DNA of 64,000 nt, from contig CBDFLN010000002.1 in assembly GCA_965249215.1 (NCBI GenBank), positions 186,662-250,661 of the forward strand, written 5' to 3'. The notes under the pieces were generated by a model. That model was not told the DNA's origin. It saw nothing but the letters and a program-made list of their open reading frames with translations, and ran no database searches. The DNA comes from Dehalococcoidia bacterium (GTDB lineage Bacteria > Chloroflexota > Dehalococcoidia > Lucifugimonadales > UBA3495). Positions within the stretch are counted from its first letter, which is position 1; each line of letters opens with the position of its first letter. Shown here one piece after another: positions 1 to 18,122 of the stretch. A program made the translations under genes and the position numbers.

Positions 1-108
1 AGTGGCCTCCGTCGTTTTTCTCCTCAGCCCTGCGGTGCTGGAGTCGCGCCTGAATGACCGCTATGCGCGGCGGACGCTGGACGCATCCGGCGGCCAGGTA
101 GTTACCCA

Positions 109-1017: not shown

Positions 1018-1643
1018 TGAACGATCAATTGAACGATCGGGCGCGCCGCGACGCCGCCTTAGCCAGGGACGCGCTGGAACTCCACCGCCCGCCCCGCCAG
1101 GGCGGCCCTCCCGCGGGTGTCCTGGTCGCCTTGAGCGGCCCGCCCGGCGTAGGCAAGTCCCATTTCGCCGCGCAGCTGGCCGAAAAACTCCCCTGCGTCG
1201 TCCTGGAAAGCGACCGCATTCGCAAGCTCCTGGTCGCCAAACCCCGGTACACCGGGCAAGAGCACGGCCGCGTCTTCGCCGTATGCCATCTCCTCGTGGA
1301 AGAATGCCTGGCCCGCGGCCATCGCGTCGTCTTCGACGCCACCAATCTCAGCGAGGCTGTCCGCCGCCCCCTGCGGCGAATCTGCCGCCGCTTGTCCGTT
1401 CCCCTGCTGTGGGTGCGCGTCACCGCCCCGTTGGATGTTGTGAAACAGCGGTTGGCCGGAAGGGACGCCGGGGAACCGGACGGCTTTTCCGATGCCGGGT
1501 GGGACGTCTACTGCCGCATGGCCCCCGGCGAAGAACCTATTAAAGGCCCGCATTTCAACGTCGATTCATCCGGCGACATCACTGGCGCAGTCGACCAGAT
1601 CGCCCGCCAGGCCTCGGCCTCCGGCGACCCCGTTGTCCGTTGA
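1017..1643 (+). CDS. P-loop small kinase-like protein (AAA_33 / zeta-toxin-like fold)
   Basis: Walker A GPPGVGKS lies near the N-terminus of a ~208-aa protein. GGAGG sits 7 nt upstream of ATG 1017. The start overlaps the degV stop (GTGATGA). Confidence 0.6.
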   Translation: MNDQLNDRARRDAALARDALELHRPPRQGGPPAGVLVALSGPPGVGKSHFAAQLAEKLPCVVLESDRIRKLLVAKPRYTGQEHGRVFAVCHLLVEECLARGHRVVFDATNLSEAVRRPLRRICRRLSVPLLWVRVTAPLDVVKQRLAGRDAGEPDGFSDAGWDVYCRMAPGEEPIKGPHFNVDSSGDITGAVDQIARQASASGDPVVR

Positions 1644-1671
1644 CCCCACTCTGTAAAAGAAAGTTGGAGAT

Positions 1672-3189: not shown

Positions 3190-3495
3190 CCCCGCCCAGC
3201 CGCCTGGCTCAGGAAGCGACTTAGCCCCGCCCAGCCGCCTGGCCCAGGAAGCGGCTTAGCCCCGCCCTGCCGCCTGGCCCAGGAAGCGACTTAGCCCCGC
3301 CCAGCCGCCTGGCTCAGGAAGCGACTTAGCCCCGCCTAGCCGCCTGGCCCAGGAAGCGGCTTAGCCCCGCCCAGCCGCCTGGCCCAGGAAGCGGCTTAGC
3401 CCCGCCCAGCCGCCTGGCCCAGGAAGCGACTTAGCCCCGCCTAGCCGCCTGGCGCAAGAAGCGGCTTAGCCCCGCCCAGCCGCCTGGCCCAGGAA
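3165..3495. repeat. 35-bp tandem repeat, about 9.5 contiguous copies
   Basis: Unit CCGCCTGGCCCAGGAAGCGGCTTAGCCCCGCCCAG starts at 3165, 3200, 3235 ... 3480. Two alternating variants occur (GCGGC/GCGAC, GGCCC/GGCTC). The first unit encodes the last codons and stop of pepA. Confidence 0.9.
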
Positions 3496-3628
3496 TCTCT
3501 CCGTTCGTACTGAGGGAAATCGAAGTACCAACGGAGAGACGCCTCCACCATTGCCGGATCCCCGCCGCCGCCGGCCCCAGCCCGTGTGCTATTATGGGCC
3601 TCCAACACGCTGCAAAGGAGTTATCACC

Positions 3629-4651
3629 ATGCCATTTGGAGGCAATGACTGGCTGGCCTTGACCCGGGAAGAGACCCTGGAGCCGGACCTTCCCATCTGC
3701 GACCCCCACCACCACTTCTGGGACTTGCGCACTGCGCGCGTCCCGTACCAGAGATACCTGCTGCACGAACTGGCCGACGATATCAACAGCGGCCACAACG
3801 TGCGCTCCACCGTGTTCATCGAGGCTCGCTCCATGTACCGCGACACGGGGCCCGAGGAGTTGCGCTGCGTCGGCGAGGTCGAATTCGTCCAGGGTCTCGC
3901 CGCCGCCAGCGCCAGCGGCCTATACGGACCCGGCCGCGCTGCCGCGGCCATCGTTGGCAAGGCCGACTTGAACATGGGCGATGGAGTCAAGCCCGTGCTG
4001 GAAGCCTTGCAGGCCGCCAGTCCCAACCGCTTCCGCGGCATCCGCCACTCGGTTACCTGGGACCCCCACCCAGAGGTTGAAAACCAGGCCGCAGGAGCCA
4101 CCCAAGGCATGATGGGCGGCGATAATTTCCGCGCCGGGGCCAGGGTCCTGGAGGCTATGGGACTGTCCTTCGAGGCCTGGATGTTTTTCCACCAGCTACC
4201 GGACCTGGCCGCATTCGCCAAATCCGTTCCCGACCTGACCATCATCCTGAACCACGTCGGAGGCTTGCTACGGACAGGCCCCTACGCCGGCCGGGACGAC
4301 GTGATGGAGACGTGGCGCAACGGCGTTGCCGCCGTGGCCCAGTGCCCCAACGTCAGCGTCAAGTTGGGCGGCATTGGAATGCCCCGCACCGGGTTCGACT
4401 GGTCCGCCCGCAGCGAGCCCATAGGCTCGGAAGAATTGGCCCGCGACATGGCCCCTTTGATGGACTACTGCATCGACAAGTTCGGCCCCGATCGCTGCAT
4501 GTTCGAGAGCAACTTCCCCGTGGACAAGGTCTCCTATTCCTACAACGTCATGTACAACGCCTTCAAGCGCCTGTCCAAGGGCTACTCCCCCTCCGAGCGC
4601 AGCGCCATGTTCCACGACAACGCCGTCCGCGCCTACCGCATCGAGGTCTAG
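3629..4651 (+). CDS. amidohydrolase family protein (amidohydrolase_2-type metal-dependent hydrolase)
   Basis: HxH metal motif in ICDPHHHFWD. AAAGGAG lies 9 nt upstream of ATG 3629, so I trimmed the ORF-track start at 3551. Confidence 0.75.
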   Translation: MPFGGNDWLALTREETLEPDLPICDPHHHFWDLRTARVPYQRYLLHELADDINSGHNVRSTVFIEARSMYRDTGPEELRCVGEVEFVQGLAAASASGLYGPGRAAAAIVGKADLNMGDGVKPVLEALQAASPNRFRGIRHSVTWDPHPEVENQAAGATQGMMGGDNFRAGARVLEAMGLSFEAWMFFHQLPDLAAFAKSVPDLTIILNHVGGLLRTGPYAGRDDVMETWRNGVAAVAQCPNVSVKLGGIGMPRTGFDWSARSEPIGSEELARDMAPLMDYCIDKFGPDRCMFESNFPVDKVSYSYNVMYNAFKRLSKGYSPSERSAMFHDNAVRAYRIEV

Positions 4652-4694
4652 GGGCCAGGCAACTAACCTCCACCTAAACCCCCAACCGGGATAC

Positions 4695-4758
4695 GTTTGC
4701 TTTTAGAGTAGGCTATGTCTGAGCCTAGATATGTCAGCCCCCATAACCGAACGGAGCC
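4695..4758. repeat. direct repeat copy 1 flanking the lipoprotein gene
   Basis: GTTTGCTTTTAGAGTAGG...CCCCATAACCGAACGGAGCC recurs at 5987-6045 in the same orientation (about 85 percent identical by eye, with a 5-nt indel). Confidence 0.75.
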
Positions 4759-5909
4759 ACCGTGTAAGCCGGGCCAATACTGTATGCAACGTCGCCGCTG
4801 CCGGGGCGGTCGGAGAACAGGTCGATGGCGCTCACATCACGCTCCCCGAGATCCACTGGAGGCGCTGACGCTTCCGGGGTTGTCGCGGGTAGCAAAGGTT
4901 CAAATGGTTTGTGGTAAATATTTTCCAAAGTGAAGCCGTCGTATGCGGCGCCATCGACGCCATATTGGTAGATGACCTTCAAGCTTGCGGGATGGCCTAA
5001 GATGTGGTCGTACGTTACACGCAGATAGCGGGGCGGGTTAGAACTCAAGGCATGCTCAAGATGCTCAAACAGGTCGTCGATGGTCCTGTAGGAGTAGTCG
5101 GAAACATGTTCTTCAGCTAAAGTCTCCCCGGACTCCCCGTCGATGACCGACTCGATTACCCCGTTCCTGACAGCGATCTTAAGGTCCTTTGAATCTTCCG
5201 GGCATTCACACAGCGGCCTGATTCTCAAATCATAGTTGTCTGAGCCCATGGCGTACCATTCGTCCTTGGCTGAGGAGAGTTCCTCCTTCGCTAAATCAAC
5301 GTCATACAGTGGTTCCTGTGGTTTCGAAGGGTCGACGGGTTCGTAGACAATCGACGTCAGGCTATATCCATCGTCGGGCGTGTTCGTATCACTTACCCCC
5401 CAGGAAGTGGGATAGCCCAAGGTGGGATGATATTTCGCACCCAGTCTGTAGGCCCTGGTGCGCAAGGCGCTGTTGATCTCGGAAAACAGGGCGCCAATGG
5501 TCTTGTTGGCGTAGACGACCTCATCTTCGGTTAACGCCTCTCCGGAATACAAGTCAATAACTAACTCGATGGCGCCGTTCCTGACAACGATCTTGAGGGT
5601 CGTTGAAGATTCCGGGCATAGACACAGCGCCTCGATTTCCAGATTATAGTTGGCTGAGCCTTTGGCGTACCATTTGTCCTTGGCCTCGGCAAGTTTCTCC
5701 TTTTCAAAGTCGACGTCATAAGCGGGCTCACGCGTCGGAGCAGACGTTGGGGTAGGTGTTGGAGCGGACGTTGGGGTAGATGTTGGAGCAGATGTTGGAG
5801 AAGGTTGATTACTGTTCCCCGCGCCGTCGCTGCACGCGACTAAGACCATCAGGAAAGACAGCGCTGTCAGAATAGCAGCCGGTCCAGCGGAACTTTTTGT
5901 AGAACACAT
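4734..5909 (-). CDS. lipoprotein with an internally duplicated ~150-aa domain, function unknown
   Basis: Signal peptide plus lipobox (LMVLVAC), then a PTSA-rich linker. Two homologous halves follow (DVDFEKEKLAEAKDKWYAKGSANY.. and DVDLAKEELSSAKDEWYAMGSDNY..). GC is visibly lower than in the neighbours. Confidence 0.6.
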   Translation of the reverse strand: MCSTKSSAGPAAILTALSFLMVLVACSDGAGNSNQPSPTSAPTSTPTSAPTPTPTSAPTREPAYDVDFEKEKLAEAKDKWYAKGSANYNLEIEALCLCPESSTTLKIVVRNGAIELVIDLYSGEALTEDEVVYANKTIGALFSEINSALRTRAYRLGAKYHPTLGYPTSWGVSDTNTPDDGYSLTSIVYEPVDPSKPQEPLYDVDLAKEELSSAKDEWYAMGSDNYDLRIRPLCECPEDSKDLKIAVRNGVIESVIDGESGETLAEEHVSDYSYRTIDDLFEHLEHALSSNPPRYLRVTYDHILGHPASLKVIYQYGVDGAAYDGFTLENIYHKPFEPLLPATTPEASAPPVDLGERDVSAIDLFSDRPGSGDVAYSIGPAYTVAPFGYGG

Positions 5910-5986
5910 GAATTATCTCCCCATTCACCTGCTTTGGTATAGGGCGTATATGGCCATCACGTCGAACGGACGCGGTGAGCAACGAA

Positions 5987-6045
5987 GTTTGCTTTTGGAG
6001 TACGTCCGAGCTTGGATATGCCAGACCCCATAACCGAACAGAGCC
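5987..6045. repeat. direct repeat copy 2 flanking the lipoprotein gene
   Basis: Matches 4695-4758. Lies between the 5-prime side of the lipoprotein gene and the AKR stop codon. Confidence 0.75.
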
Positions 6046-6067
6046 CTCAGCGGAGCCGGTACTAGCC

Positions 6068-7081
6068 CTACGGGCTAACGTACTGCGGCGGGTAGGGGTT
6101 CACGCTGTGCTTGGCGAAAACCTCGTCTATCCGTCGCATATCCTCGGCCGAGAGGGCCCACTCCAGCGCCCCCAGGTCCTCTTCCAGCTCCTGGTCGTTC
6201 AGGATGCCTACCAGGGCAGTGCCAACCGCAGGGTTTGCCAAGACCCACCTCAGCGCGAGCTGCGGCAGGGTCTTGCCGAGGCTCTCCGCGACGGGTTTCA
6301 GGTCGTCGACCAGGTTCACGTTTCGCTTCCACACCGAATCGTCGAAAATGTCCACCACCACCTCCGGCGCGTCTCCCCTCATGCGCCAGTCCACTTCCTC
6401 GAAGTTCTTCGGCACCGTGCAGGTCCCGGACAGCAGGCCGGAGGCCAATGCCCCCCAGCCCATCACTCCAATGTCCTCTTGCTCGCAATGGGGGATGATC
6501 TCTGTGTCCACCCGCCTGTCGAAAGCGTTGTAGTGGTACTGCGCCGCATCCACCCGCCGGATAGCGTTGCATTCCTTGACTTGGGCAAGGCTGTGATTCG
6601 AGAGGCCCACGTACCTCGCCTTCCCCTGCTGCACCAGGCTGTCCAGGGTCTCCATGGTCTCCTCGAAAGGCGTGTGGGGGTCCGGATAATGCACCAGCAG
6701 CACGTCTATGTAGTCGGTCTGCATCCGCTCCAGGCTCTGTTCCACCAGGGGCAGTATGTAGTCCCTTCGGCTGTCCCGGCCCGGCCGCGGCCGGTCGAGC
6801 TCCGATCCCTGCCAGCCCAGGCCGCACTTAGTCACCAGCGCCACGTCCTTGCGGCGCGTGCCGAGGGCCCTTCCCAGCATCTTTTCCGAGTCCCCCAGTC
6901 CGTAGTGGGGCGCGGTATCGAAGCAGTTGATGCCCATGTCGATGGCCCGGTTTACCGTGGCGCACATCTGGTCGATATAGTCGTCCCCCCACAGTCCTTT
7001 GGTCGGCTTTGACGCGTCATGACAGCCGTAGCCTATGGCTGACACCGTGATGTCCGTTGCTCCGAATTTGCGGTATTCCAT
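6068..7081 (-). CDS. aldo/keto reductase (paralogue 1)
   Basis: Starts at MEYRKFG (ATG 7081), as in the two paralogues. AKR-typical CFDTAP.YG and DVLLVHYPD motifs. The upstream ORF extension to 7246 is discarded. Confidence 0.85.
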   Translation of the reverse strand: MEYRKFGATDITVSAIGYGCHDASKPTKGLWGDDYIDQMCATVNRAIDMGINCFDTAPHYGLGDSEKMLGRALGTRRKDVALVTKCGLGWQGSELDRPRPGRDSRRDYILPLVEQSLERMQTDYIDVLLVHYPDPHTPFEETMETLDSLVQQGKARYVGLSNHSLAQVKECNAIRRVDAAQYHYNAFDRRVDTEIIPHCEQEDIGVMGWGALASGLLSGTCTVPKNFEEVDWRMRGDAPEVVVDIFDDSVWKRNVNLVDDLKPVAESLGKTLPQLALRWVLANPAVGTALVGILNDQELEEDLGALEWALSAEDMRRIDEVFAKHSVNPYPPQYVSP

Positions 7082-7330
7082 CGCTCTGCTGCCTCCAACG
7101 AGTTGGGTTCCTGCGCAATCATGGGACCTGACCGGTTGTCCCCGGCTCCGGTCGTCCAATAGTACATCAATCACCGCCGCCCAATCCACCAACTGCTCAT
7201 TCCGCCGCCAACCAACCCTGGAGCAACGGTCCTCTCGGCGCGGCACCCACCCTGTCTCGTTGACAACGACAGACTCAAATTGATATAAGCTTCTACAGGC
7301 GTACAGCCAAGACGAGGGGGAATCAACAAC

Positions 7331-7696
7331 ATGAGCAGTTCCAATGATGGCCCAGTAGGCGTCCTGCGCATGGTAGGCATCGACGTGGGGGACTTGGACC
7401 GGGCCAAGGAGTTCTGGTCCGCTATCCTAGGGCTAGAGGAAGAGAGCCGGGGCCCCGAATACCTGTTGTTCGTCAGGCGTCCGGGCGAGCCCATCATCTA
7501 CTTGCAAAAGGTGCCGGAGAAAAAGATCATCAAGAACCGGATGCACTTCGACATCGCCGTCAAAGACCTGGATGTAGGCGTCGACCGGGCGCTTGCCCTG
7601 GGCGCGACGAGGTCCCGGACTATCCCCGGAGGCGGACCCCACGTTGCAGTCCTGGAAGACCCCGACGGCAACGAGTTCTGCCTGGTCATGCACTAG
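7331..7696 (+). CDS. VOC (glyoxalase/bleomycin-resistance/dioxygenase) family protein
   Basis: 121 aa, with GIDVGDLDRAKEFW .. MHFDIAV .. LEDPDGNEFCLV, typical of a single VOC module. Confidence 0.75.
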   Translation: MSSSNDGPVGVLRMVGIDVGDLDRAKEFWSAILGLEEESRGPEYLLFVRRPGEPIIYLQKVPEKKIIKNRMHFDIAVKDLDVGVDRALALGATRSRTIPGGGPHVAVLEDPDGNEFCLVMH

Positions 7697-7784
7697 TTAG
7701 CCGGCAGCAGTGACCAAAACTGCGTAGGGGGCGGGGATAAATGTGCCCCCTGGCAGGCTAACTGCCTTAGGCTAACGTCGAATT

Positions 7785-8157
7785 CCCCGTTCACCGTGAG
7801 CCTGTCCAAATCACCCGTTCACACTGAGCTTGTCGAAGTGCGCCGCCGCCCGTTCGTTTGGTTCGAGAGCCTCACCACGAACGGGCTACCAGCCTGGGCG
7901 CACCACGAACGGGCTGCCAATCTTCACCCGTTGACACTGAGCTTGTCGAAGTGCGCCGCCGCCCGTTCGTCTGGTTCGAGAGCCTCACCATGAACGGGCT
8001 ACCAGCCTGGGCGCACCACGAACGGGCTACCATCCTGGGCGCACTACGAACGGGCTGCCAGTCTGGGCGCACTACGAACGGGCTGCCAGTCTGGGCGCAC
8101 CACGAACGGGCTGCCAATCTTCACCCGTTCACCCTGAGCTAGTCGAAGGGCCCGCCG
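7785..8157. repeat. REP/MITE-like composite repeat array (family A)
   Basis: Repeated modules CCCGTTCAC(N)TGAGCNTGTCGAAG, GGTTCGAGAGCCTCACCA and 28-bp units CGAACGGGCTRCCANNCTGGGCGCACYA (x ~4.5). Hairpin arms GAACGGG/CCCGTTC. ORF-track peptides here are translations of the repeat. Confidence 0.8.
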
Positions 8158-9168
8158 CTACGGGTCTACCATCACGGGCGGGTGCGTATCGACGCCGTAC
8201 TTGGCGAACACCTCGTCTATCTCGCGCATCTCCTCGCCCGATATAGCCCACCCCAGCACCCCCAGGTTCTCTTCCAATTCCCGGCTGTTTATCGTCCCCA
8301 CCAGGGCCGCGCTCACCGCCGGGTTGGACAGCACCCACCTCAAGGATAGCTGGGCGATGGTCTTGCCCCGCCTCTCTGCGATGGGTTTAAGCTCGTCCAC
8401 CAGGCGTATGTTACTTTGGAAGATGTCATGGGCATACTGCCCCTTCATAATCTCGCCGGCGGCGTCTCCCTTTGCCCGCCAGTCCGAATCGCTGAACGTA
8501 GTGTCCGCGGTGAATGCGCCCGCCAGCAAGCCCGACGCCATCGAGCCCCACACCATCACCCCCAAGCCCTGCTCCCGGCACCAGGGGAATATCTCCGGCT
8601 CCATCCGACGGTCGAACATGTTCAACTGGTATTGAGCGATCTCCAGCGGCCGGATCTCGTGGCACTTCTTGATCTGGGCCTCCGCGAAGTTGGACACCCC
8701 CAAATATCTAACCTTCCCCTGCTGCACCAAGGTGTCCATGGCGTCCATGGTCTCCTCGAAAGGCGTGCCCGTATCCGGGAAGTGGCACAACAGCACGTCT
8801 ATGTAGTCAGTTTGCAGCCTTTGCAGGCTTGATTCCACCAGGGGCAGTATGTTCTCCCTCCGGGCATCCCTGCCCTTGGGCCTGCCCTCCGCCGATCCCT
8901 CGAACCCGAACCCGCACTTGGTCACGACCACCACGTCCTTCCGCTGCGGGCCCAGGGCCTTGCCCAACATTAACTCCGATGCGCCGCCGCCGTACACCGG
9001 CGCCGTGTCGAAACACGTGATTCCCAGGTCCAGGGCCCGGCGAACCGCCGCGCCCATTTCGTCGCCGTAGCCTCCGCCGCCTGCTACTTGCGGTACGCTG
9101 GCATCCCAGCAACCACAGCCCAGCACCGATACCGTTAGGTCCGTTGGTCCGAATTGTCGGTATTCCAT
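8158..9168 (-). CDS. aldo/keto reductase (paralogue 2)
   Basis: Starts at MEYRQFG (ATG 9168). Collinear with 6068-7081 and 10233-11219. Confidence 0.85.
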   Translation of the reverse strand: MEYRQFGPTDLTVSVLGCGCWDASVPQVAGGGGYGDEMGAAVRRALDLGITCFDTAPVYGGGASELMLGKALGPQRKDVVVVTKCGFGFEGSAEGRPKGRDARRENILPLVESSLQRLQTDYIDVLLCHFPDTGTPFEETMDAMDTLVQQGKVRYLGVSNFAEAQIKKCHEIRPLEIAQYQLNMFDRRMEPEIFPWCREQGLGVMVWGSMASGLLAGAFTADTTFSDSDWRAKGDAAGEIMKGQYAHDIFQSNIRLVDELKPIAERRGKTIAQLSLRWVLSNPAVSAALVGTINSRELEENLGVLGWAISGEEMREIDEVFAKYGVDTHPPVMVDP

Positions 9169-9276
9169 TTCTCTGCCACCTCCATAAGGCTGGATACTAC
9201 GAATACCCGGGCTTGATGCCGGCACGCCTCCTGTCACTCCCGGCGCACCCCCTGGCCACCGCTGGCGCACCGCCTG

Positions 9277-9657
9277 TCATCTACAATCCCAGCGCACCCA
9301 CCATGTCATTCCTGTAAGTGTCGGGTAATTCGTTGACATATCCAAACAGCGGAGCATAAGCCCCCGGAGTTCATAGCGGGCGAGGTCGGCGGCCTCCTGG
9401 CGGAGGCGGGCCAGTTCATGGCGGAAGCGGTTGTCTTGGAGCCAACGGTAGGGTGTGCCTTGTCCTATGCCCAAGGAGCGTGCGGCTTGAGCCAGGGTGG
9501 GAGCAGCGGCGATGATGGGCAGAGCTTGCTGCCGACGGGAGGAAAGGCCGGAATTTTCGAATTCTGTACCATTCTGTACCATTCCGTTCCATTTTGGGGC
9601 GTCGGCAGCAGGCGAGGGAGGGTTGGAGGATTCGGGGCTGGGGCGGCGTTTGGTCAC
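9277..9657 (-). CDS. helix-turn-helix protein, probably a truncated phage/mobile-element remnant
   Basis: LSSRRQQALPIIAAAPTLAQAARSLGIGQGTPYRWLQDNRFRHELARLRQEA resembles small phage HTH proteins. The C-terminal 25 aa look like read-through junk. Confidence 0.3.
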   Translation of the reverse strand: MTKRRPSPESSNPPSPAADAPKWNGMVQNGTEFENSGLSSRRQQALPIIAAAPTLAQAARSLGIGQGTPYRWLQDNRFRHELARLRQEAADLARYELRGLMLRCLDMSTNYPTLTGMTWWVRWDCR

Positions 9658-10030
9658 GACACGTCACGGGCCTCAGTGGCTGGTCTTGATTGGGTCCGGC
9701 GATATGGCAGGGACCTGACCTGCATCCATGATAAGGGGAGCCTGGGAGGCTGGGCAAGGGGCAAGTGTCAGTGGTGGGGGCGCTGGGGGCGAGATTATGA
9801 CCCCCTCTAAATCTCCCCCTTCGTAAGGGGGAGAGGTCAAGTTTGGTACAAACCGGGGAGACTGGTAACAGATTATCCATGAACATAGGTAACAATTTCC
9901 TTCAAGGAGGAAAGGAAATGGCGGCTGGGAGGAGGGAATAACGGTTTGTCAACGAATTAGCTAACACATACAATTCCGAGCGCAGCGCAGCGGAGAGAGG
10001 AATCTGCAATCCCGCGGCGGCTGGCGGTCC

Positions 10031-10104
10031 GCCCCTTCGACAAGCTCAGGACAGGCCCCTTCGACTGGCTCAGGACAGGCCCCTTCGACTGGCTCAGGAC
10101 AGGC
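10031..10104. repeat. 24-25-bp tandem repeat x3 (family A-related)
   Basis: CCCCTTCGAC(AA/TG)GCTCAGGACAGG repeated three times. The same motif occurs at 53590-53615. Confidence 0.7.
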
Positions 10105-10167
10105 ATTTTAGGTTCTTTCGTCGCAGGCTCCTCAGAATGACTGGGGGAGGGTGTTCCTCAGGATGAC

Positions 10168-10181
10168 GGGGGGGGGGGGGG
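10168..10181. repeat. G14 homopolymer
   Basis: 14 consecutive G counted directly, intergenic, about 50 nt 3-prime of the AKR3 stop. Confidence 0.9.
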
Positions 10182-10232
10182 CCGTCGCCCCAGAATGACA
10201 GGTTGGGGACAGGCAGGCAGCCCGGAAGCAGC

Positions 10233-11219
10233 CTATGGGTCCAGGCCAATGCCAGGGTGAGTCTCCACGCCGTACTTGGCGAATACCGCGTCAACCTCCC
10301 GCAGGTCCTCGGCGGAAAGCGCCCAACCCAGCGTACCCATGTTCTCCTCGAACTCTTTGGTGCGCAGGGTGCCGACCAGGGCGGTGCTTACTGCCGGGTT
10401 GGACAACACCCACCGGAGCGCAAGCTGGGGCATCGTCTTGCCCAGTTTGGCCGCAATGGATTTCAGCTCATCCACCACCTGGATGTTACGTGCCCTGTGC
10501 TCCAGGGCCAGCATACCCCCGTCGAATCCGGCGCTGCCTCCTATCCCTCGATAGTCGCCTTCTTGGAACTTCATGTCCACAGTGAAAGTACCCGTCAGCA
10601 GGCCGAAACCCATTGACCCGTAGGTCATAACCCCTATGCCGGTTTCCATGCAATAGGGATACATCGCCTTCTCGACGCGCCTGTCGAACATGTTATAGTC
10701 GTGCTGCACCACGCTAACCGGGCGAGTCTTCTCGCACTCCCGCACCTGCTCCTCGGTGAAATTTGAAACGCCTGTGTAACGCACCTTCCCCTGCTGCACC
10801 GCGGTCTCCAGCGCCCCCATGGTCTCCTCGAAAGGCACGCTCACGTCCGGCGCATGCACCAGCAGCACGTCCAGGTAGTCCGTTTGCATCCTTTGCAGGC
10901 TCTGGTCCACCTGCTGTAGGATAGACTCCCTGCGGCCGTCCCGGTTCTTCAGCCTGCCGACCTGCGAACCCTGGAAGCCCAGGCCGCACTTGGTCACCAC
11001 CACCACGTCTTTCCGCCGGGCGCCCAATGCCCTGCCCAGCATTCGCTCCGACTCCCCGTCGCCGTACTGGGCCGCAGTATCGAAGCAGGTTATGCCATGG
11101 TCCAAGGCTCGCTTTACGGCGGTCTCCATTTCATCGCCGTAAGCCTTCTCGTAGTCCCATACGCCGCACCCAAACACCGACACGGTCAGGTCCGTAGGGC
11201 CGAATCTGCGGTATTCCAT
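10233..11219 (-). CDS. aldo/keto reductase (paralogue 3)
   Basis: Starts at MEYRRFG (ATG 11219). Collinear with the other two AKR genes. Confidence 0.85.
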   Translation of the reverse strand: MEYRRFGPTDLTVSVFGCGVWDYEKAYGDEMETAVKRALDHGITCFDTAAQYGDGESERMLGRALGARRKDVVVVTKCGLGFQGSQVGRLKNRDGRRESILQQVDQSLQRMQTDYLDVLLVHAPDVSVPFEETMGALETAVQQGKVRYTGVSNFTEEQVRECEKTRPVSVVQHDYNMFDRRVEKAMYPYCMETGIGVMTYGSMGFGLLTGTFTVDMKFQEGDYRGIGGSAGFDGGMLALEHRARNIQVVDELKSIAAKLGKTMPQLALRWVLSNPAVSTALVGTLRTKEFEENMGTLGWALSAEDLREVDAVFAKYGVETHPGIGLDP

Positions 11220-11552
11220 TGGTCTGCCTCCTCCAGTCAGCCTGGCTATTGGAAAACTCAGGGGCTGGGCGTCCGGTTCTCCGCCCGCCCGATTTTCAGC
11301 ATTGTACACCAATAACTGGCAGGGTAAGGAGACATTGCGGTGACGCCGGTAGCATTTCCGGCCGGGGTCTAACTCCCGCTCTGGTGTTGCTTCGCGACCT
11401 CACTATGCCTCCGGGTGGCCAAGAGGACCCGCTACTTGGCAATGGCCGGATGTTGGGCGGCAAGTGGAGGGCAACGGCAGACCTGGTGGTATAATCCGGC
11501 CCGAACCGCGTTGGGAGAACGAGTATCAACCAGGGAGAGTTGAGACGAAGCA

Positions 11553-13097
11553 ATGGTAGAGCGGTTCTTGTGTAGCCTGGCGCCGCTGGCGGCGTTATTG
11601 CTGGCGCTGGCGATAGCCTGCGGTGTGCCCGACGCACTGGGAACGACACCTCCGGAAGCCACCGTGACGCCCACGAACATGAACGAGCCTCAACCCACAG
11701 AGGCCATGACACCCGAACTCACGGAGGTAGTGACGCCCGTATCCACGGAGGTGACGGAGCCGGAACCGACAGACGTGACGGAGCCGGAACCGACAGACGT
11801 GACGGAGCCGGACCCCACGGACGAGGCGGAAACGGAGAGCTATTACGGCGGCGCTCTCAGGGTGGCGTATCCTATTGACCACTCAACTCTGGACCCAGTC
11901 CAAGCCGAGGCCGTAATCATAACCGACGCGGTCGGTCAAATTTTCGAGCCCTTGGTCCGCATCGCTCCCGACGCCTCGTACGTTCCCATTCTGGCCACGG
12001 CCTGGGAAATCAGCGACGACCTTATGTCCTACACCTTCACCCTGCGGGAAGGGGTGAAGTTCCACAACGGGGCCGACTTCACGGCAGACGACGTGGTCTT
12101 TAGCCTTAACCGGGCTCGGGATCCTGACATCTCCTCGCAGGCTGCCCTATTTGGCAGTGTTGATGATATCGTCGCCGTCGACGACTATGCCGTTCGTATT
12201 GACCACGATGTCCCCAACGGCCTCTTCCTGGACGTCCTGCAGCTATTGCCATCGGCCATCCTGGACGCCGATACGGATCTCGACAAGTTGGCAGTGGGTG
12301 AGGAGGCCTACGGCACAGGCCCATTCATGCTCGAAGAGTTGCTGCCGGAAGAACGGGTCACCATGGTCCGCAACCCCGACTATTGGGACCGCGGATTGCC
12401 TTACCTGGATGAGTTGGTCTTCGTGGGTATCGCGGAACGTTCAGCCCGGCGTGAGGCGCTCTTGGACGGCGATGTGGACGTATTGCCCGGTGTCGAACCA
12501 AAGGAAGTCGACGCCATCTCTGCCGGTCCCTACACCCAGGTGCATAGCGTTGTGTCATCAAGCTGGATCGGGATAGCCATAAATAACCTGATACGGCCTT
12601 TTGACGACAAACTTGTGCGGCAGGCGTTGCGATACGCCGTCGACCGGGATCTGGTCAACCAAATGGCGTTCTTGGGCCTGGGCGCCCCCAACAACGACAG
12701 CCCGGTTTGGCCCGGGGACTCCCGCTTCTACGCTCCAGAATATGAGGTTGAGTACGATCCGGAAAAGGCACGGCAGCTCTTGGCGGAGGCCGGCTACTCG
12801 GATGGCATCGATATCACCATAGCCACGGCTGACCTGGATCCAGGAATGATCGAGTTGCCCGCGGCATTCAAACAGAGCGCGGCGGCGGCGGGCATCCGGG
12901 TCGACATCAAAAGTCACTCGTCGGCCCAATTCTGGAGTCAGATATATCCCTACGGGCCTTTGACTGTCTTCTGGAATTTGGTCCGGCCCCACCCGGACCA
13001 CTCCCTGACGATAATCTTCCACAGCGGCTCACGGTGGAACACGACCTACTTCGGCAAACAACTGGTTGAGGGCGCCGAATTCGCTCCGTTCGATAGG
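11553..13097 (+). pseudogene. ABC transporter substrate-binding protein (family 5), N-terminal part, interrupted by an IS element
   Basis: Lipoprotein signal (LALAIAC), then a 24-bp x 2.7 tandem repeat encoding TEPEPTDV (11751-11816). SBP_bac_5-like body. The reading frame runs into the IS inverted repeat at 13098 and then into nonsense. Confidence 0.8.
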
Positions 13098-13227
13098 GAA
13101 ATTTTGGGAATTATATACCTGTTTACACAATTGAAGTTGGGCAGTTTAGCCACTTGCTCAGGTGAGGGGAGTCACTCTCCGGTGACAATGCCCGCCAGGG
13201 TGAGTTTTAGGACTTCCCAGGTCGCTC

Positions 13228-13401
13228 CTACTCCGTATCCTCGGCCTTGTCCCGCTCCGCTTCCACTTCCTTGCTCTGATAGTCCCACGTCTCTTTAGGC
13301 GGCCCCTGCATACAGGCAAGGGCTATTTCCTCCGGCGATGCGTCTACCGGGTCCCACAACGTCCCAATCCTCTTGTCGGCTAGTGGTTCTCTCTTGGCCA
13401 T
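13228..13401 (-). CDS. hypothetical 57-aa protein (below the ORF-track cutoff)
   Basis: My own translation is MAKREPLADKRIGTLWDPVDASPEEIALACMQGPPKETWDYQSKEVEAERDKAEDTE. AAAGGA lies upstream, 35 nt after the passenger stop, inside the IS ends. Confidence 0.25.
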   Translation of the reverse strand: MAKREPLADKRIGTLWDPVDASPEEIALACMQGPPKETWDYQSKEVEAERDKAEDTE

Positions 13402-13436
13402 ATCACAGTCCTTTTACTGTCGGCTATGGTGAAGGT

Positions 13437-15710
13437 CTAGATGCGCCTGAAAAGCTCCGCAACCCTGGGAAAGCGGGGCGCCGGCAGGTTCCAGGCGGGG
13501 TCTGTCCTTCGGATTGAGTCCACAACAGCGTCCCGATCCAAGACAAGCACATTCCCACTTCCATAAGTGGCCGTCCGGTTCACCCAGTGGTCCTGCACCT
13601 CTCGCATTCGCAGAATGTCGCGCACATTGTCGACGCCTATCAGAATGTCAGTGTCAGTGGCTGTCCAATACCCTTGCGTGGGAACTGCCTTCCTGGTGTA
13701 CCGTTCTCGAACTAACCGGCTGGCCATCTGTTGATGCTTCAACTCCCAGGCCCAGCCGTTGAAATCGCTGGCCGTAACCGGCTTCGCCCAGGCCGCTATC
13801 ACTTCATCACCTATAAGGTTTTCGACCAACAATGTCCGTATAAGGCTTGTGGACTCCAATAGATAGTCAAAGCTGGCAGGGTCCTTGACGGAGGCTATGG
13901 TCTCCGTCATCCGGTCTAAATACTCTAAGTAGAAGTCTTGCCCAAGGCGATTGATGAAGGGCAGGGTTTCCTTGTCTAGGCGTCTGCGGGTGTCCTCGTC
14001 GTCTGACGGCAACCCTTTTGGCGTGTAGACCAGAAACGCTCTATTCCTGACTTCGTTGGCGAACTCGGTCGCGTCGGGGTTCAGCGTAACTATCGTGCAT
14101 GGATAATGCCCCCCATTACTCACCATCACGTCATACAGCTTTATGATGAGCTCGCCTTGCTTCTGGTTTCTACCAGAAAAGCGTTCCGCGGCCACGTCCT
14201 GATAGAACAGGGGCAGTACTCCAACATGGCGGGCTGCATCCTTGAAGTCCGTTTGGGTGAAATCGCTGTTATCTAGGACAGTGGGCGGCCCGAACATAGA
14301 TGTCAAGAGGAACCTTACCAGTGCACTTTTCCCGCAATGCGACTGGCCGTAAACAATGGCCACGTGCTTGATCTCTTTGGAAGCATTGCCACCGGCAAGA
14401 TAGATGTCTCGGGCCAAGGCGGGCATGAACGGCGTGAAGTATAGCCAGCCCATCAGCCCGAAGTAGTTGCGCTGTAGAAGGTCGGCCCCCTTCCCAAACT
14501 CATGAAACTTGTCGATAAATTGGTTGATAAGCAATGCGTCGCTGGCAATGCCTTCATTGGAGCCGGCGACCTCCACCGAACGGCCATCATAGATGAAGTG
14601 GTCACTAATGCGACTCAGGCTATGCCACCTGGCAGGTGTCGCCGGCCTCTTGGAGGCCAGCGCATAGTTGATGGGCCGAAGCGCCGCTTCGTCAAGAATC
14701 GCCTTGCCTTCGGGTAAAACGTGAATGTTCTCACGCAACCCCTCGGACATGGCGGTTTCCAAGTCAGCAGCCCGCACAGCGATATACTCAGGGTCGCCCG
14801 GCATATCGGTTCCCGAGAAGAAGAGGGTGAAGTGTTCGCCCTTCCGCTTCGCTTCCCGTCCGGCCGGCAGGTCCTCCGCCTTGACCAGGTGGGCCGGTTT
14901 CGTTTCCGGCCTGAGTTGGAGCCCAGTTGCCAGGGACAAGGCTGCCTCATATTTCCGCATTAGGCAGCCCCACATCCAGTCGTCATTGTCGAACGCTAAC
15001 AGGACTTCACCCTGGCGTCCCGACATAGCCCTATCGGACAGGTTGGCGCTTCCTACAAGGACGCGGCGCAGCCCCGGCTTCTCCAGGAAGTACAGCTTGG
15101 AATGAACGATGCCGCCGCCCGTGACGTAGAACCTGGCCCGCCCAGTTGCTTGCCACGCCATCAAATGCGCCGTCTGTTCGTCTGTGGCCCCGCCGATCCC
15201 CAGATAGCCTCGCGCAAGCTCGTCCTCGATGGCTTGCTGAAAGAGCACTACCTTCTCGGCGCTGGTTTCTCGCACCAGGCCTTCGGACCCGAATAGGATT
15301 TCCGCCTCCCTGTACTCTTGCATGGTCAGGAGCTTGAGAATCGAGGGAAGGGACACAGTGTAGGTCAGCGCCCGAAACGTCTCGAAGCCGGCCAGTATGT
15401 CTGTCGTGAACTTTGTGACGTCGTGCTCGTAGGGCCAAATAACCTCCAGGCTCAGGGCTGCATCCCGTGCGTCCTCCAAGGTGTCAAACGCACTCAGCTG
15501 CGGCTGCGCAATCCTATCTTCAAACATCGTGCCGCGGCTTGCCGCTATAAGGTCTACGTGCCTGATGCGGTATGATGGTCTCCCGGCCCGCGGCACGCGG
15601 ACAGCCTGCAGCCTCCCGGACTTTATCCAACCAGAAACTATTTGCTGCTTAGTCCCAATGACCTCAGCGGCTTCTGATGCACTCTCGTAAACTTCCTTGA
15701 CATTCGCCAT
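13437..15710 (-). CDS. HTH + PLD-like (HKD) nuclease domain + P-loop NTPase fusion protein (IS passenger)
   Basis: Residues ~10-57 are excisionase/MerR-type HTH-like (EAAEVIGTKQQIVSGWIKSGRLQAVRV). Single HKD motif H203-S-K..VGSANLS. Walker A GQSHCGKS (455-462), a possible Walker B LPLFYQD and an SF3-helicase-like continuation. GGAGG RBS. Confidence 0.7.
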   Translation of the reverse strand: MANVKEVYESASEAAEVIGTKQQIVSGWIKSGRLQAVRVPRAGRPSYRIRHVDLIAASRGTMFEDRIAQPQLSAFDTLEDARDAALSLEVIWPYEHDVTKFTTDILAGFETFRALTYTVSLPSILKLLTMQEYREAEILFGSEGLVRETSAEKVVLFQQAIEDELARGYLGIGGATDEQTAHLMAWQATGRARFYVTGGGIVHSKLYFLEKPGLRRVLVGSANLSDRAMSGRQGEVLLAFDNDDWMWGCLMRKYEAALSLATGLQLRPETKPAHLVKAEDLPAGREAKRKGEHFTLFFSGTDMPGDPEYIAVRAADLETAMSEGLRENIHVLPEGKAILDEAALRPINYALASKRPATPARWHSLSRISDHFIYDGRSVEVAGSNEGIASDALLINQFIDKFHEFGKGADLLQRNYFGLMGWLYFTPFMPALARDIYLAGGNASKEIKHVAIVYGQSHCGKSALVRFLLTSMFGPPTVLDNSDFTQTDFKDAARHVGVLPLFYQDVAAERFSGRNQKQGELIIKLYDVMVSNGGHYPCTIVTLNPDATEFANEVRNRAFLVYTPKGLPSDDEDTRRRLDKETLPFINRLGQDFYLEYLDRMTETIASVKDPASFDYLLESTSLIRTLLVENLIGDEVIAAWAKPVTASDFNGWAWELKHQQMASRLVRERYTRKAVPTQGYWTATDTDILIGVDNVRDILRMREVQDHWVNRTATYGSGNVLVLDRDAVVDSIRRTDPAWNLPAPRFPRVAELFRRI

Positions 15711-15719
15711 TGCTACCTC

Positions 15720-15778
15720 CAGTCAATACAGTCATTACAGCCATTGTACCATCAAGGCGAGAAAGACTGTATTGACTG
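15720..15778 (-). promoter_or_regulatory. putative promoter of the passenger gene flanked by a 14-bp inverted-repeat operator
   Basis: CAGTCAATACAGTC (15720-15733) and GACTGTATTGACTG (15765-15778) are perfect reverse complements. Between them on the minus strand sits TGGTACAAT, an extended -10 (15743-15751). Confidence 0.45.
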
Positions 15779-15798
15779 TATTGGGACGGTCGCCCAGG

Positions 15799-16776
15799 CT
15801 AAAGCATCCGTGGTTGTCGGGTGATTTCCGGCCCTATCAGGCCAGCGTATGAAAGCCGCTTGCCAGCTGTTCCCCTGGCCATGCGGCCCATGATGGCCTC
15901 CGTGTCCAACGGGCGGCTGTTGTGACGGCCTGAGAACTCGGTTACGTAGCGCCCCAGGTGCTTGGCCGAGATATGGTGGTAGGTCCCGTTGATTCCCCGC
16001 TTGAGCAAGGCCCAAAAGGACTCTATCCCGTTGGTGGTCGCCTCATGCTTGACGTACTCCCCGGCGCTGTGCTGGACCGTCCAGTGGGAGCGGTGGGGCA
16101 TCCCTTCGTATGCCTTGGCTTCGTCGGTGTAGACCACGGCCCCAATCTCGGTAGTTTGCCGGACAAAACCCTGGAGGGCCTCTTTGTCGGTGAAGGCGAT
16201 GGGCCTAGCGGTGATTTGCCCGGTCTCCTGGTCGCGAGCTCCCACAACCGCGGCCTTGCCTACCGGCCCGCGGCCAGCGTTCAGTTTCTTGTCCTGGTGC
16301 TTGTTCCCTTCCTTCCCGCCGATGTAGGTCTCGTCGATCTCCACGGGGCCGGAGAATTGGTCGGGATTCTCTTTGAGGGTTTCCCGGATGCGGTGGGCCA
16401 AGTGCCAAGCCGTCTTTTGGGTAACGGCCAGGTCCCGGTGTAGCTTCATGCTCGATACGCCCTTCAGATGTGTAGAAAACAGGTAGAAGGCGATGGCCCA
16501 GGTTCCCAGGGGGAGCTTCGAACCTTGCATCAATGTGCCGGTCTTTATGGAGAAGTCCTTGCGGCAATCCTTGCACCGGAACGGCTGGGGCTTGCGGTTC
16601 TTGCGCTCTCTCACGCCATCCAGTCCGCCGCAGAAGGGGCAGCATATCCCGGAGGGCCAGCGGGTTTCCATGAACCACGCCTCAGCGTCGGCCTCGTTGG
16701 AGAATCGCTGGATGGCTTGGACTAGGGAGATACCCTTGCGAAAGGACTTGCCGGGGGCTGATTTAGTCATGGTCAC
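15799..16776 (-). CDS. IS1595-family (ISXO2-like) DDE transposase
   Basis: N-terminal zinc ribbon CPFCGG..CKDCRKDF, plus VEIDETYIGGK, VYTDEAKAY and NGIESFWALLKR motifs. 325 aa. Confidence 0.85.
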   Translation of the reverse strand: MTMTKSAPGKSFRKGISLVQAIQRFSNEADAEAWFMETRWPSGICCPFCGGLDGVRERKNRKPQPFRCKDCRKDFSIKTGTLMQGSKLPLGTWAIAFYLFSTHLKGVSSMKLHRDLAVTQKTAWHLAHRIRETLKENPDQFSGPVEIDETYIGGKEGNKHQDKKLNAGRGPVGKAAVVGARDQETGQITARPIAFTDKEALQGFVRQTTEIGAVVYTDEAKAYEGMPHRSHWTVQHSAGEYVKHEATTNGIESFWALLKRGINGTYHHISAKHLGRYVTEFSGRHNSRPLDTEAIMGRMARGTAGKRLSYAGLIGPEITRQPRML

Positions 16777-16797
16777 TATCCTTTGGTTGATAGTACC

Positions 16798-16826
16798 AGT
16801 TTACACATTTGGGCCTTCAAAGTCAA
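16798..16826 (-). promoter_or_regulatory. putative transposase promoter
   Basis: The minus strand reads TTGACT-N17-TAAACT just inside the right IR, about 20 nt upstream of an AAAGGA RBS. Confidence 0.35.
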
Positions 16827-16875
16827 GGGTTTTTGCCCCAATTGTGTAATTAGGTATATAATTCCCGAAATTTTC

Positions 16876-17112
16876 ACCGTAGGCCCGTTGGCCCAAGAGT
16901 TGGACGCGCTCATCGAACGGGCCAGGGGGGAGAGCCTGGAACAGCAAAAGGTGACCTATCGGGAGATACAGGCCTTCTTGGCGGAACAGGTGCCGCAGCT
17001 TGTCATAGCCTCTCGTCCCAAGATAGCCGGAGCAGGGAATCATGTGCAGGGCTTGGCGCTAAGCCCGCTAAGTCCGAATTATTACTACGAAACGGTCTGG
17101 CTGGAGCAGTAG
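16876..17112 (+). pseudogene. ABC transporter substrate-binding protein, C-terminal part
   Basis: ..ELDALIERARGESLEQQKVTYREIQAFLAEQVPQLVI..NHVQGLALSPL..YYYETVWLEQ is a typical family-5 SBP C-terminus. It begins right after the IS inverted repeat. Confidence 0.75.
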
Positions 17113-17141
17113 GGCCAGCCGGTTCCGCTGCCGTGTCCAGT

Positions 17142-18122
17142 TCATACCACTAGCACAATCTTCCCGAAGTTGGCGTTGGTCTCCATGTATTCGTGGGCCT
17201 TTCCCGCCTCCGCCAGGGGGAAAGTGCGGTCCACCACCGCCCGAATCCTGCCGTCGGCGATCAACGGCAGCACGTGTCTCATGAACTGGTGGGTCAGCCC
17301 TATCTTCTCCTCCAGGGGACGGGGCCTCAGCACCGTGCCGTGCACCCGGAGCCGCTTGGGCATTAACAGTCCCAGGCTGGTTTCCACCTTGTCTCCGCCC
17401 ATCAACCCCACCAACACGATCCTCCCCTGGGTCGACATGGCGGCGATGTTCCGCTCCCAGTACGGACCGCCCACCAGGTCGCAGACCACGTTGACGCCCT
17501 TCCTGCCCGTCGCCTCCTTCACCACTTGGACAAAGTCCTGCTCCCGGTAGTTGATGCCCTTGTCCAGACCCAACTCCGCCGCCCTGGCAAGCTTCTCCGC
17601 CGATCCCGCCGTCCCGAACACGTAGGCCCCGGCCTGGTGCGCCAGTTGCAGGGCGGCAGTGCCCACGCCGCTGCCCACGGCGTGCACCAGCGCCGACTCC
17701 CCCATCTGCAATTCGCAATGGTTGAACAGGGCATCGTATGCGGTGAAGAATACCTCCGGTATGGCCGCGGCCTGGACGAAGTCCAACTCCGGCGGCATGG
17801 GCATGGCCATCAGGTGGTGCGTCGTTACCCGGCTCGCGTACCCTGCTCCCGCCAGCAGCCCGAACACCCTGTCCCCCGGAGCCATTGCCGTCACCCGTTC
17901 GCCCGCTTCCAGCACCACCCCGGAAAACTCCAGACCGGGCACGTCGGCCCGCACCCCCGGCGGCGGGGCGTAGCCTCCAAGGCGCTGCAGCAGATCGGCC
18001 CGGTTCAGGGCCGATGCCTTTACATCGACAAGGACTTCATCCGGAGAGGGAACCGGGTCGTCGACTTCCCTTACCTGCAGTACCTCCGGGCCTCCCGGCC
18101 CCGTAATCAGCGCCGCTCGCAT
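17142..18122 (-). CDS. NAD(P)H:quinone oxidoreductase (MDR superfamily, PIG3/Qor-like)
   Basis: MRAALITGPGGPEVLQVREV.., ASALNRADL and AVGSGVGTAA nucleotide-binding motifs. AAGGAGG lies upstream of ATG 18122. The ORF-track extension to 18317 is discarded. Confidence 0.8.
   Translation of the reverse strand: MRAALITGPGGPEVLQVREVDDPVPSPDEVLVDVKASALNRADLLQRLGGYAPPPGVRADVPGLEFSGVVLEAGERVTAMAPGDRVFGLLAGAGYASRVTTHHLMAMPMPPELDFVQAAAIPEVFFTAYDALFNHCELQMGESALVHAVGSGVGTAALQLAHQAGAYVFGTAGSAEKLARAAELGLDKGINYREQDFVQVVKEATGRKGVNVVCDLVGGPYWERNIAAMSTQGRIVLVGLMGGDKVETSLGLLMPKRLRVHGTVLRPRPLEEKIGLTHQFMRHVLPLIADGRIRAVVDRTFPLAEAGKAHEYMETNANFGKIVLVV

Follow-up and report, generated by a model that had tools for sequence, protein, structure and literature searches.

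Nucleases of the phospholipase D (PLD) superfamily coupled to hydrolysis of nucleoside triphosphate (NTP) are already known among restriction and defence systems. In this superfamily two HKD motifs make one active site, and the single-HKD enzymes Nuc, BfiI and NgoAVII act as dimers. R.NgoAVII and R.CglI reportedly carry a single HKD motif per chain and need an NTP-hydrolysing partner, the N-protein ATPase, as Zaremba et al. are said to have found in 2014. The ATP-dependent type IV enzyme SauUSI holds an N-terminal PLD domain, an NTP motor and a C-terminal domain in one polypeptide, includes a target-recognition domain that reads modified bases, and has no cognate methylase. Here we describe a protein of 757 amino acids (aa) encoded in a 64,000-nucleotide stretch of a Dehalococcoidia bacterium genome (contig CBDFLN010000002.1; the whole stretch is called the window below). 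The protein is predicted to join a helix-turn-helix (HTH) head, a single-HKD PLD nuclease domain and an NTPase module resembling the superfamily 3 (SF3) helicases, and its gene is carried as cargo on an IS1595-family insertion sequence (IS). In our judgement the chances are about even that it is a self-contained, NTP-driven PLD endonuclease of restriction or defence type, carried by an active IS1595 transporter IS, cutting foreign DNA and autoregulated through iterons. The part that would be new in such an enzyme is the SF3-type motor.

The cargo protein shares features with several described systems. The nuclease domain found its best structural match in R.NgoAVII (PDB entry 4rct) and its best Pfam match in RE_NgoFVII, the N-terminal PLD domain. 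In R.NgoAVII and R.CglI, nuclease and motor are separate, R contains a B3-like DNA-binding domain and a methylase is encoded alongside; in contrast, the cargo protein has its nuclease fused to the SF3-like motor, with neither B3 domain nor methylase. The likeness to SauUSI lies in the domain order within one polypeptide and the lack of a cognate methylase, and SauUSI was also matched by Foldseek (7clg, E 5e-4), but its motor is a superfamily 2 (SF2) helicase whereas that of the cargo protein is an SF3/D5-like module of the additional strand catalytic glutamate (ASCE) type. The SF3 modules of poxvirus D5/E5, phage NrS-1 and African swine fever virus (ASFV) C962R were the top fold matches of residues 361-757 and show a like order of motifs; they are fused to primase or polymerase and act in replication, whereas the partner in the cargo protein is a PLD nuclease. 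At the sequence level, no significant match to SF3 helicases was obtained in sequence and profile searches of the PDB. McrBC, a type IV system, is a functional analogy only: it also combines an oligomeric ASCE/AAA+ NTP motor with an endonuclease and has no methylase, but it consists of two proteins, with a PD-(D/E)xK nuclease and a GTP-specific AAA+ motor, and homology is not claimed.

Modules of the cargo protein

The open reading frame (ORF) of the cargo gene is present exactly as quoted in a preliminary description of this DNA, and the three-part HTH, PLD and NTPase architecture proposed there is borne out by homologue profiles, invariant residues and structural models. The parts of the gene and its upstream region are as follows.

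13437-15710, minus strand: cargo gene, stop codon included, for the 757-aa HTH / PLD nuclease / SF3-like NTPase protein
15537-15689, minus strand: N-terminal winged HTH of excisionase/MerR type, residues ~8-58, predicted from profiles and model
14907-15485, minus strand: PLD-superfamily nuclease domain, residues ~76-268, predicted from profiles, Foldseek and conservation
15036-15104, minus strand: single HKD motif, H203-x-K205...G220-S-A-N223
14631-14906, minus strand: linker, residues ~269-360, predicted to be disordered and poorly conserved, with a predicted local distance difference test (pLDDT) score mostly below 50
13791-14630, minus strand: SF3/D5-like P-loop NTPase, residues ~361-640, its core preceded by a helical region
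14325-14351, minus strand: Walker A, Y454-S462
13440-13790, minus strand: C-terminal alpha/beta domain, residues ~641-757, confidently modelled
15720-15783, minus strand: iteron/operator region upstream of the cargo gene, with inverted repeats and a putative promoter

A word-indexed search gave 36 relatives with 27-100% identity, the window's own protein counted, and an exhaustive profile search gave 1,453 clusters (50% identity) at E < 1e-3, including 300 at E < 1e-30. Most relatives from the profile search are 650-690 aa long and begin at about query residue 70-100, indicating that they are without the HTH. In an alignment of 70 diverse members with 17-46% identity to the query, the columns of G141, H203, K205, S221, N223, E235, G460, K461, N544 and R557 were invariant; judged from this alignment, invariance over such divergence is far in excess of chance. 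The PLD and NTPase domains occur together in every full-length member tested, and no other N-terminal domain was found on the NTPase module among these members, each of which has the PLD domain. The sole AbiEii match in the scan of family members falls on a 368-aa fragment.

The Pfam entry PF27394, "Aq_aa27", was precomputed for all 36 relatives including the window protein (P0001), and appears from its matches to correspond to the PLD and NTPase core. The name is presumably derived from an uncharacterised Aquifex aeolicus protein. No described function was found for PF27394, and its accession returned no paper in the literature searched; a search with aq_aa27 gave unrelated string matches only, and one combining PLD, SF3 and defence gave nothing on this family. 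The earlier statement that no named family is known with this three-part fusion holds in that no characterised family covers the whole of it, as the profile searches also indicated, but not for the core, which is catalogued as PF27394. RefSeq labels the plasmid-borne relatives as "phospholipase D family protein" or "restriction endonuclease PLD domain-containing protein". Among the defence-system models of PADLOC-DB v2.0.0, none fits the whole protein; the matches of the window protein are limited to the HKD motif (ZacB, residues 202-243, E 6.4e-5; DrmC, E 0.01). Sequence-only searches of the PDB with the protein and two profiles returned HTH, HKD and P-loop snippets and no significant match to the whole protein.

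The PLD domain has one HKD motif per chain, reading H203-S-K205-LYFL-E210 ... G220-S221-A-N223, in agreement with the pattern HxK(x)4D ... GSxN except for E instead of D at +7 and a longer than canonical spacer ahead of GSxN. When scanned as a single sequence, the window protein came close to the cut-off for RE_NgoFVII (residues 179-242, 23.6 bits against 23.8), matched PLDc_2 at E 4.6e-3 and gave a sub-threshold match to DrmC. Of the 70 family members scanned singly, 64 matched PLDc_2 and 61 matched RE_NgoFVII, the best E being 1.5e-10. A full-protein AlphaFold (AF2) model had a mean pLDDT of 76.6, and Foldseek placed R.NgoAVII (4rct, E 1.2e-5) first among its PDB matches, with SauUSI and the monkeypox virus (MPXV) E5 helicase after it. 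Family profiles and fold match agree in placing the domain in the PLD superfamily, and with H203, K205, S221 and N223 invariant in the 70 homologues, the single HKD motif seen by the preliminary description is well founded.

For the HTH, single-sequence matches were below threshold: HTH_17 at residues 11-56 (E 2.8e-3, 18.3 bits against a cut-off of 27) and the excisionase model TIGR01764 (E 4.9e-3, 17.2 bits against 28.8). PHROG matches of the window protein were to MerR-like and excisionase families, and HTH_17 was precomputed for 17 of the 36 homologues. A profile of 28 homologues matched the DNA-binding chains of RacA, Gp37 and MerR-like proteins in the PDB over residues 7-59 with weak E-values of 0.03-0.3. 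Residues 11-50 of the AF2 model form two helices followed by two strands, a predicted layout consistent with a winged HTH. With weak profile matches and this modelled layout, an excisionase/MerR-type HTH is the probable assignment. HTH_17 was found in 3 of the 70 diverse family members, and on this sampling the HTH fusion is restricted to one Chloroflexota clade.

The motifs of the NTPase module stand in SF3 order: Walker A as G455-x4-G460-K461-S, Walker B as P500-x4-D505, an asparagine of motif-C type at N544 and a downstream arginine at R557. G455 and P500 are nearly invariant in the 70 members, and D505 is nearly invariant in 28 closer sequences. The single-sequence match to ATPase_2 covers the Walker A only. 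Modelled separately, residues 361-757 reached a pLDDT of 88.1 and a predicted template modelling (pTM) score of 0.80; the top matches were the MPXV E5, vaccinia D5 and phage NrS-1 helicases, with a probability of 1.0, and D5-type and COG3378 primase-helicases dominated the matches in a library of predicted viral structures. The resemblance to the Walker A, motif B, motif C and Arg finger of SF3 proteins, noticed earlier in the sequence, is therefore reinforced by the invariance of G460, K461, N544 and R557 and by the E5/D5 fold matches. The SF3 Pfam models RNA_helicase, DUF5906 or VapE were touched by only 3-5 of the 70 members. On the models, "SF3-like" is the best description of this module, which may not be a strict member of the SF3 family. 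In the linker (residues 269-360) the alignment columns are gappy and variable. The C-terminal domain (residues ~641-757) gave no specific fold match in the structure searches; it is in part common to the family, because distant homologues match query residues ~100-691.

The region upstream of the cargo gene contains CAATACAGTC twice in tandem (15783-15765) and GACTGTATTGACTG in inverted orientation (15733-15720). These iterons bracket a -10-like element, TGGTACAAT, and the inverted copy abuts a GGAGG ribosome-binding site. Among the loci of the HTH clade, 9 of 10 have 2-4 copies of a 9-10-bp motif within 75 nt upstream of the start codon, often with one copy inverted; comparable repeats were found in 2 of 56 non-HTH loci, for which start codons were called crudely. 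The motif varies by locus and, in our own reading, usually ends in A-Y/T-A-T-T-G. The L005 and L068 loci share a VSRQTI helix together with TTTACAT, and L065 and L067 share a QP-containing helix together with ATAT-type repeats, suggesting, in a small sample, that the type of iteron co-varies with the recognition helix of the HTH. The simplest reading would be that the HTH was added for autoregulation and binds an operator that covers its own promoter; alternatively, the repeats could work like an origin.

Each gene has its own type of iteron in the upstream regions of L001 (7997-8042), L005, L065, L067 and L068; the examples there include GCGCACATTG four times, GGTTTACAT four times and GGTTATATT three times. 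The L001 gene call runs through the iterons, and so the true start is probably the methionine of MMKDVY at 8043.

The IS1595-family element and its cargo slot

The cargo gene lies in an IS1595-family element of 3,761 bp (13106-16866) with the gene order transposase, cargo gene, 57-aa ORF.

13098-13105, no strand: 8-bp target-site duplication GAAATTTT, copy 1, directly outside the IS end
16867-16874, no strand: 8-bp target-site duplication GAAATTTT, copy 2, directly outside the IS end
13106-13133, no strand: terminal inverted repeat, transposase-distal end, beginning GGGAATTATATACC
16839-16866, no strand: terminal inverted repeat, transposase-proximal end
15799-16776, minus strand: IS1595-family DDE transposase, 325 aa, with an N-terminal zinc ribbon
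13228-13401, minus strand: small backbone ORF, 57 aa, with a conserved ...IDA[ST]PEEIA... motif

The terminal inverted repeats form a pair of 35 nt with 91% complementarity, and the motif GGGAATTATATACC occurs 2 times in the window against 0 expected. The transposase matches DDE_Tnp_IS1595 (PF12762, E 3.3e-37), Zn_ribbon_IS1595 (PF12760, E 2.5e-8) and NF033547 (E 6.7e-54, 183 bits against a cut-off of 75). Inverted repeats bounded by an 8-bp duplication agree with the IS1595 family, for which 8 bp is reportedly the size given in ISfinder. The gene had been called a passenger on a small transposon of this family, and the exact ends and perfect target duplications now confirm it.

The same unit of transposase, cargo and small ORF with GGGAATTATATA ends was found in two other Chloroflexota contigs from metagenome-assembled genomes (MAGs), L001 and L004, flanked by perfect AT-rich 8-bp duplications, AATTATAT and ATTTAATT, respectively. 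Compared with the window, their transposases are ~60% identical and their cargo proteins 55-63% identical. A frameshift breaks the cargo gene of L004 (~7995-10291; from a sponge MAG) into ORFs of 180 and 584 aa, making it a probable pseudogene.

Other sister elements carry different genes in the position of the cargo. The GGGAATTATA ends are common to L001, L004, L069-L071 and L073. The slot of L069 (3419-6260) contains an N6_N4 methyltransferase and a type II restriction enzyme (REase_II, E 2.3e-15), that of L070 and L071 (3695-6264) a C5 methyltransferase and an HNH enzyme, and that of L077 (~3200-6250) and L078 (~1-3050) a 592-aa methyltransferase-HNH fusion; in L073 the small ORF directly follows the transposase, with no cargo in the slot. 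Thus, within this lineage the slot holds either one of three kinds of type II restriction-modification (R-M) cargo or the PLD-NTPase gene. L070 and L071 come from one assembly as separate copies of the element, and since their 8-bp duplications are perfect but different (AATATTAT and AAATAATT), the element is active. No matching 8-bp duplication was found at the flanks of L069. The transposase of L004, with PLD-NTPase cargo, is 91% identical to that of L069, with R-M cargo, and the terminal repeats are almost the same; near-identical backbones with different cargo indicate that the cargo has been swapped.

The small ORF had to be considered as a cargo partner or antitoxin, and this was rejected: it trails the IS1595 transposase in 8 of 9 sister loci examined, whatever the cargo, including elements with R-M or no cargo. 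The exception is L072, where no transposase was called near the small ORF. Read from these gene arrangements, the small ORF belongs to the IS backbone rather than being a partner of the cargo, transposition can do without the cargo, and the slot is otherwise used by restriction-type modules.

The element agrees with the described passenger-carrying (transporter) IS of the IS1595 family in having DDE_Tnp_IS1595 with a zinc ribbon, terminal inverted repeats, 8-bp duplications and additional genes inside the repeats. Unlike these, the lineage of the window conserves the small ORF as a further gene of the backbone and has a slot with exchangeable contents. In the literature searched on IS1595 passenger genes, no description of an IS1595 lineage with fixed backbone and swappable slot was found.

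Genomic settings of homologues and possible functions

Whether homologues always lie inside IS1595 ends had been raised in the preliminary description; only 3 of 10 loci examined in the close HTH clade do. The window, L001 and L004 have the transposase, while L002/L006, L003, L005 and L065-L068 do not, and an IS1595 transposase anywhere in the flanks was found for 1 of ~55 distant loci, ~7 kb away and on the opposite strand. The 61 genome loci come mostly from MAGs of Dehalococcoidia, Acidimicrobiia (Spongiisociaceae among them) and Latescibacterota; sponges or corals were the source of many. Defence genes are reported to be abundant in communities of the sponge and coral type (PMC5099237). 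Away from the IS, homologues occupy a type I R-M operon, toxin-antitoxin surroundings on plasmids, or variable regions. No partner gene is universal across the 61 loci, indicating a single-gene module.

The homologue of at least 12 Latescibacterota genomes is located directly upstream of the HsdM gene in a type I R-M island (L008-L020, L023 and L030; ~5000-17600), an arrangement seen only in the Latescibacterota branch. This conserved island holds Fic and then a SIR2/TPR protein or an unannotated protein of ~1,480 aa, together with AlbA_2/HATPase_c_4, the PLD-NTPase homologue, HsdM, a zeta-toxin-like kinase, an Xre antitoxin, DUF488 and HsdS. The 1,482-aa island protein of L008 (1856-6301) gave no Pfam match at E 1e-4. 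Type I R-M islands of this kind are places where accessory genes for restriction or abortive infection, prrC among them, are found. On two plasmids, Komagataeibacter pKOB3 (L074, 6905-8737) and Acetobacter Apa386Bp1 (L075, 6908-8968), a solo homologue lies amid VapC/Phd, MazEF, HicAB, RelBE and BrnT modules. For one of the two, a replication initiator belonging to the plasmid and a TraA relaxase are annotated in the vicinity; the other is typed as carrying relaxases of MOBF and MOBP type. A plasmid-borne relative of 370 aa on Thermus pTHEOS02 (L076, 6893-8005) matches the NTPase part only (query 385-649) and adjoins a transposase fragment.

One locus of the clade, L002 (= L006; Dehalococcoidia genome OY764162.1), has the homologue as the only ORF of a 2.36-kb cassette (7935-10295), bounded by perfect inverted repeats of 21-22 bp, GGTTCTGTTCAAAATGTGTTG, and a perfect 8-bp duplication, GAGGGCGC. 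The cassette sits without a transposase between the eno (enolase) and HpcH genes. It resembles the transposase-less mobile insertion cassettes, and from its structure it is most likely such a cassette, moved in trans. Terminal repeats hugging the gene were found only at L002/L006 among 68 loci, so the gene is not generally an element with terminal repeats of its own; the L002 repeat gave no match in JGI metagenomes.

From sequence we infer nuclease and ATPase activity, oligomerisation, a target, autoregulation and a protective phenotype for the cargo protein, and these could be combined as follows. The SF3/D5-like module would oligomerise on DNA and spend NTP to translocate or remodel it. Because there is one HKD motif per chain, the PLD domains of two chains would have to pair to form one active site, which would then cut the DNA. 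The targets would be foreign or modified DNA, discriminated in a type IV-like or another manner. In the Chloroflexota clade, the HTH would bind the 9-10-bp iterons over its own promoter and ribosome-binding site, by which a dangerous nuclease would be kept low. A defence- or restriction-like role is favoured, as far as gene content can tell, by four independent contexts.

Several points weigh against a defence nuclease. No methyltransferase was found inside the elements that carry the PLD-NTPase gene (window, L001 and L004); self-protection is therefore unexplained, and discrimination of the type IV kind or another kind would be needed. The classic role of D5-like helicases is in the replication of mobile elements. 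The template modelling (TM) scores to SF3 helicases are modest, 0.31-0.39, and the clamp-loader/replication factor C (RFC) and Cdc48 AAA+ proteins score nearly alike. Several homologues adjoin housekeeping genes such as enolase/HpcH and SecA. PADLOC v2 models gave no match beyond the ~40-residue HKD motif for the window protein and the 70 family members, and PADLOC matches in near and far flanks (1e-10, 25 families listed) numbered 163 and 138, a non-discriminating comparison that was not used. No functional data on any family member were found in the literature searched.

The same observations may be read in terms of selfish persistence, an unlikely account that overlaps with a restriction nuclease rather than excluding it. 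Here the nuclease-motor would act like a toxin, with HTH autoregulation or another protection, and make loss of the IS or plasmid costly, to the benefit of the element and not of the host. The plasmid homologues inside blocks of toxin-antitoxin genes and the R-M systems in the sister slots fit this account, R-M systems being, as Kobayashi is said to have argued, classic addiction modules; the frameshifted gene of L004 is also what is expected of a costly gene. However, no antitoxin or methylase partner is conserved alongside, the downstream small ORF belongs to the IS backbone and not to the cargo, and a large NTP motor is atypical of simple toxins. Less credible still is an initiator of replication or mobilisation, analogous to the HUH-SF3 Rep proteins, in which the iterons would serve as an origin read by the HTH, nicking by the PLD domain would go through a covalent phosphohistidine intermediate and the SF3-like helicase would unwind. 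Helicases of SF3/D5 type typically replicate viruses and mobile elements and supply the fold matches, the iterons adjoin the gene as in Rep/ori pairs, and in L002 the gene stands alone between terminal repeats within an 8-bp duplication. Against this, iterons and HTH are limited to one clade, with ~95% of the family having neither, and, as would be expected of an operator, the iterons overlie the region of the promoter and ribosome-binding site. In addition, no integrase, primase or other replicon genes were found alongside in the loci examined, the two plasmids bear the replication and mobility functions given above, no homologue was detected in 50,697 phage records, and the Latescibacterota homologue lies directly upstream of HsdM in the type I R-M island.

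A related proposal, which we regard as very improbable, is that the protein itself moves or copies its own cassette, as a phosphohistidine nickase or strand-transferase with a helicase, guided by HTH-iteron recognition. Such an enzyme would be the PLD counterpart of the HUH-SF3 Rep proteins and would explain the L002 cassette, the one observation that speaks for it. Self-mobilising PLD chemistry is conceivable because the PLD restriction enzyme BfiI catalyses DNA transesterification in vitro. Yet repeats were found at 1 of 68 loci, most of the family is without HTH and iterons, and an IS1595-type transposase acting in trans would also leave an 8-bp duplication. A transposition helper ATPase had also been offered as an alternative and is hardly tenable; such a protein, like IstB, MuB or TnsC, would help the IS1595 transposase to choose a target or to transfer strands. 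An ASCE/AAA+-like NTPase is indeed encoded directly downstream of the DDE transposase within the inverted repeats of three diverged elements, but L070 and L071 have transposed without such a gene, as their different duplications indicate, and L073 is without it too; these sister elements contradict the proposal. Moreover, the great majority of homologues lack a neighbouring transposase, and an invariant PLD nuclease would have no role in a helper.

If the protein is a defence nuclease, it would bring a new class of motor to the restriction and defence repertoire, a ring helicase fold of SF3/D5 type, otherwise known from viral replication, fused to PLD. The 1,453 clusters define a sizeable single-gene family. 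The IS1595 fixed backbone with its plug-in slot would be a concrete vehicle by which restriction-type modules hop within and between genomes, and equivalence of the slot could nominate new defence genes more generally.

Insertion site and small backbone ORF

The remaining features of the element and its flanks in the window are given below.

11553-13105, plus strand: 5' part of an interrupted SBP_bac_5 solute-binding-protein gene (SBP_bac_5, E 3.4e-85)
16875-17112, plus strand: 3' part of the interrupted SBP_bac_5 gene
16798-16826, minus strand: promoter-like site, TTGACT-17-TAAACT, upstream of the transposase gene, a consensus match only

When the element and one octamer (13106-16874) were deleted in silico, a 596-aa ORF reading ...EFAPFDREIFTVGPLAQ... 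was restored. Since excision restores an intact SBP_bac_5 ORF, the insertion is recent and clean, and on this reconstruction it inactivated a gene for an ABC-transporter solute-binding protein. The G+C content of the element is 57.2%, against 62.5% for the window.

The small-ORF family has 44 homologues. Those of L001, L004, L069, L070 and L073 are 69-84 aa long and were aligned by eye. In the element of L004 an extra ORF of 113 aa lies ahead of the small ORF. The small ORF of the window keeps IDA[ST]PEEIA and is without the CxxC...CxxC zinc-ribbon half that is present in all relatives examined; this copy may be defective, which could affect the mobility of the element.

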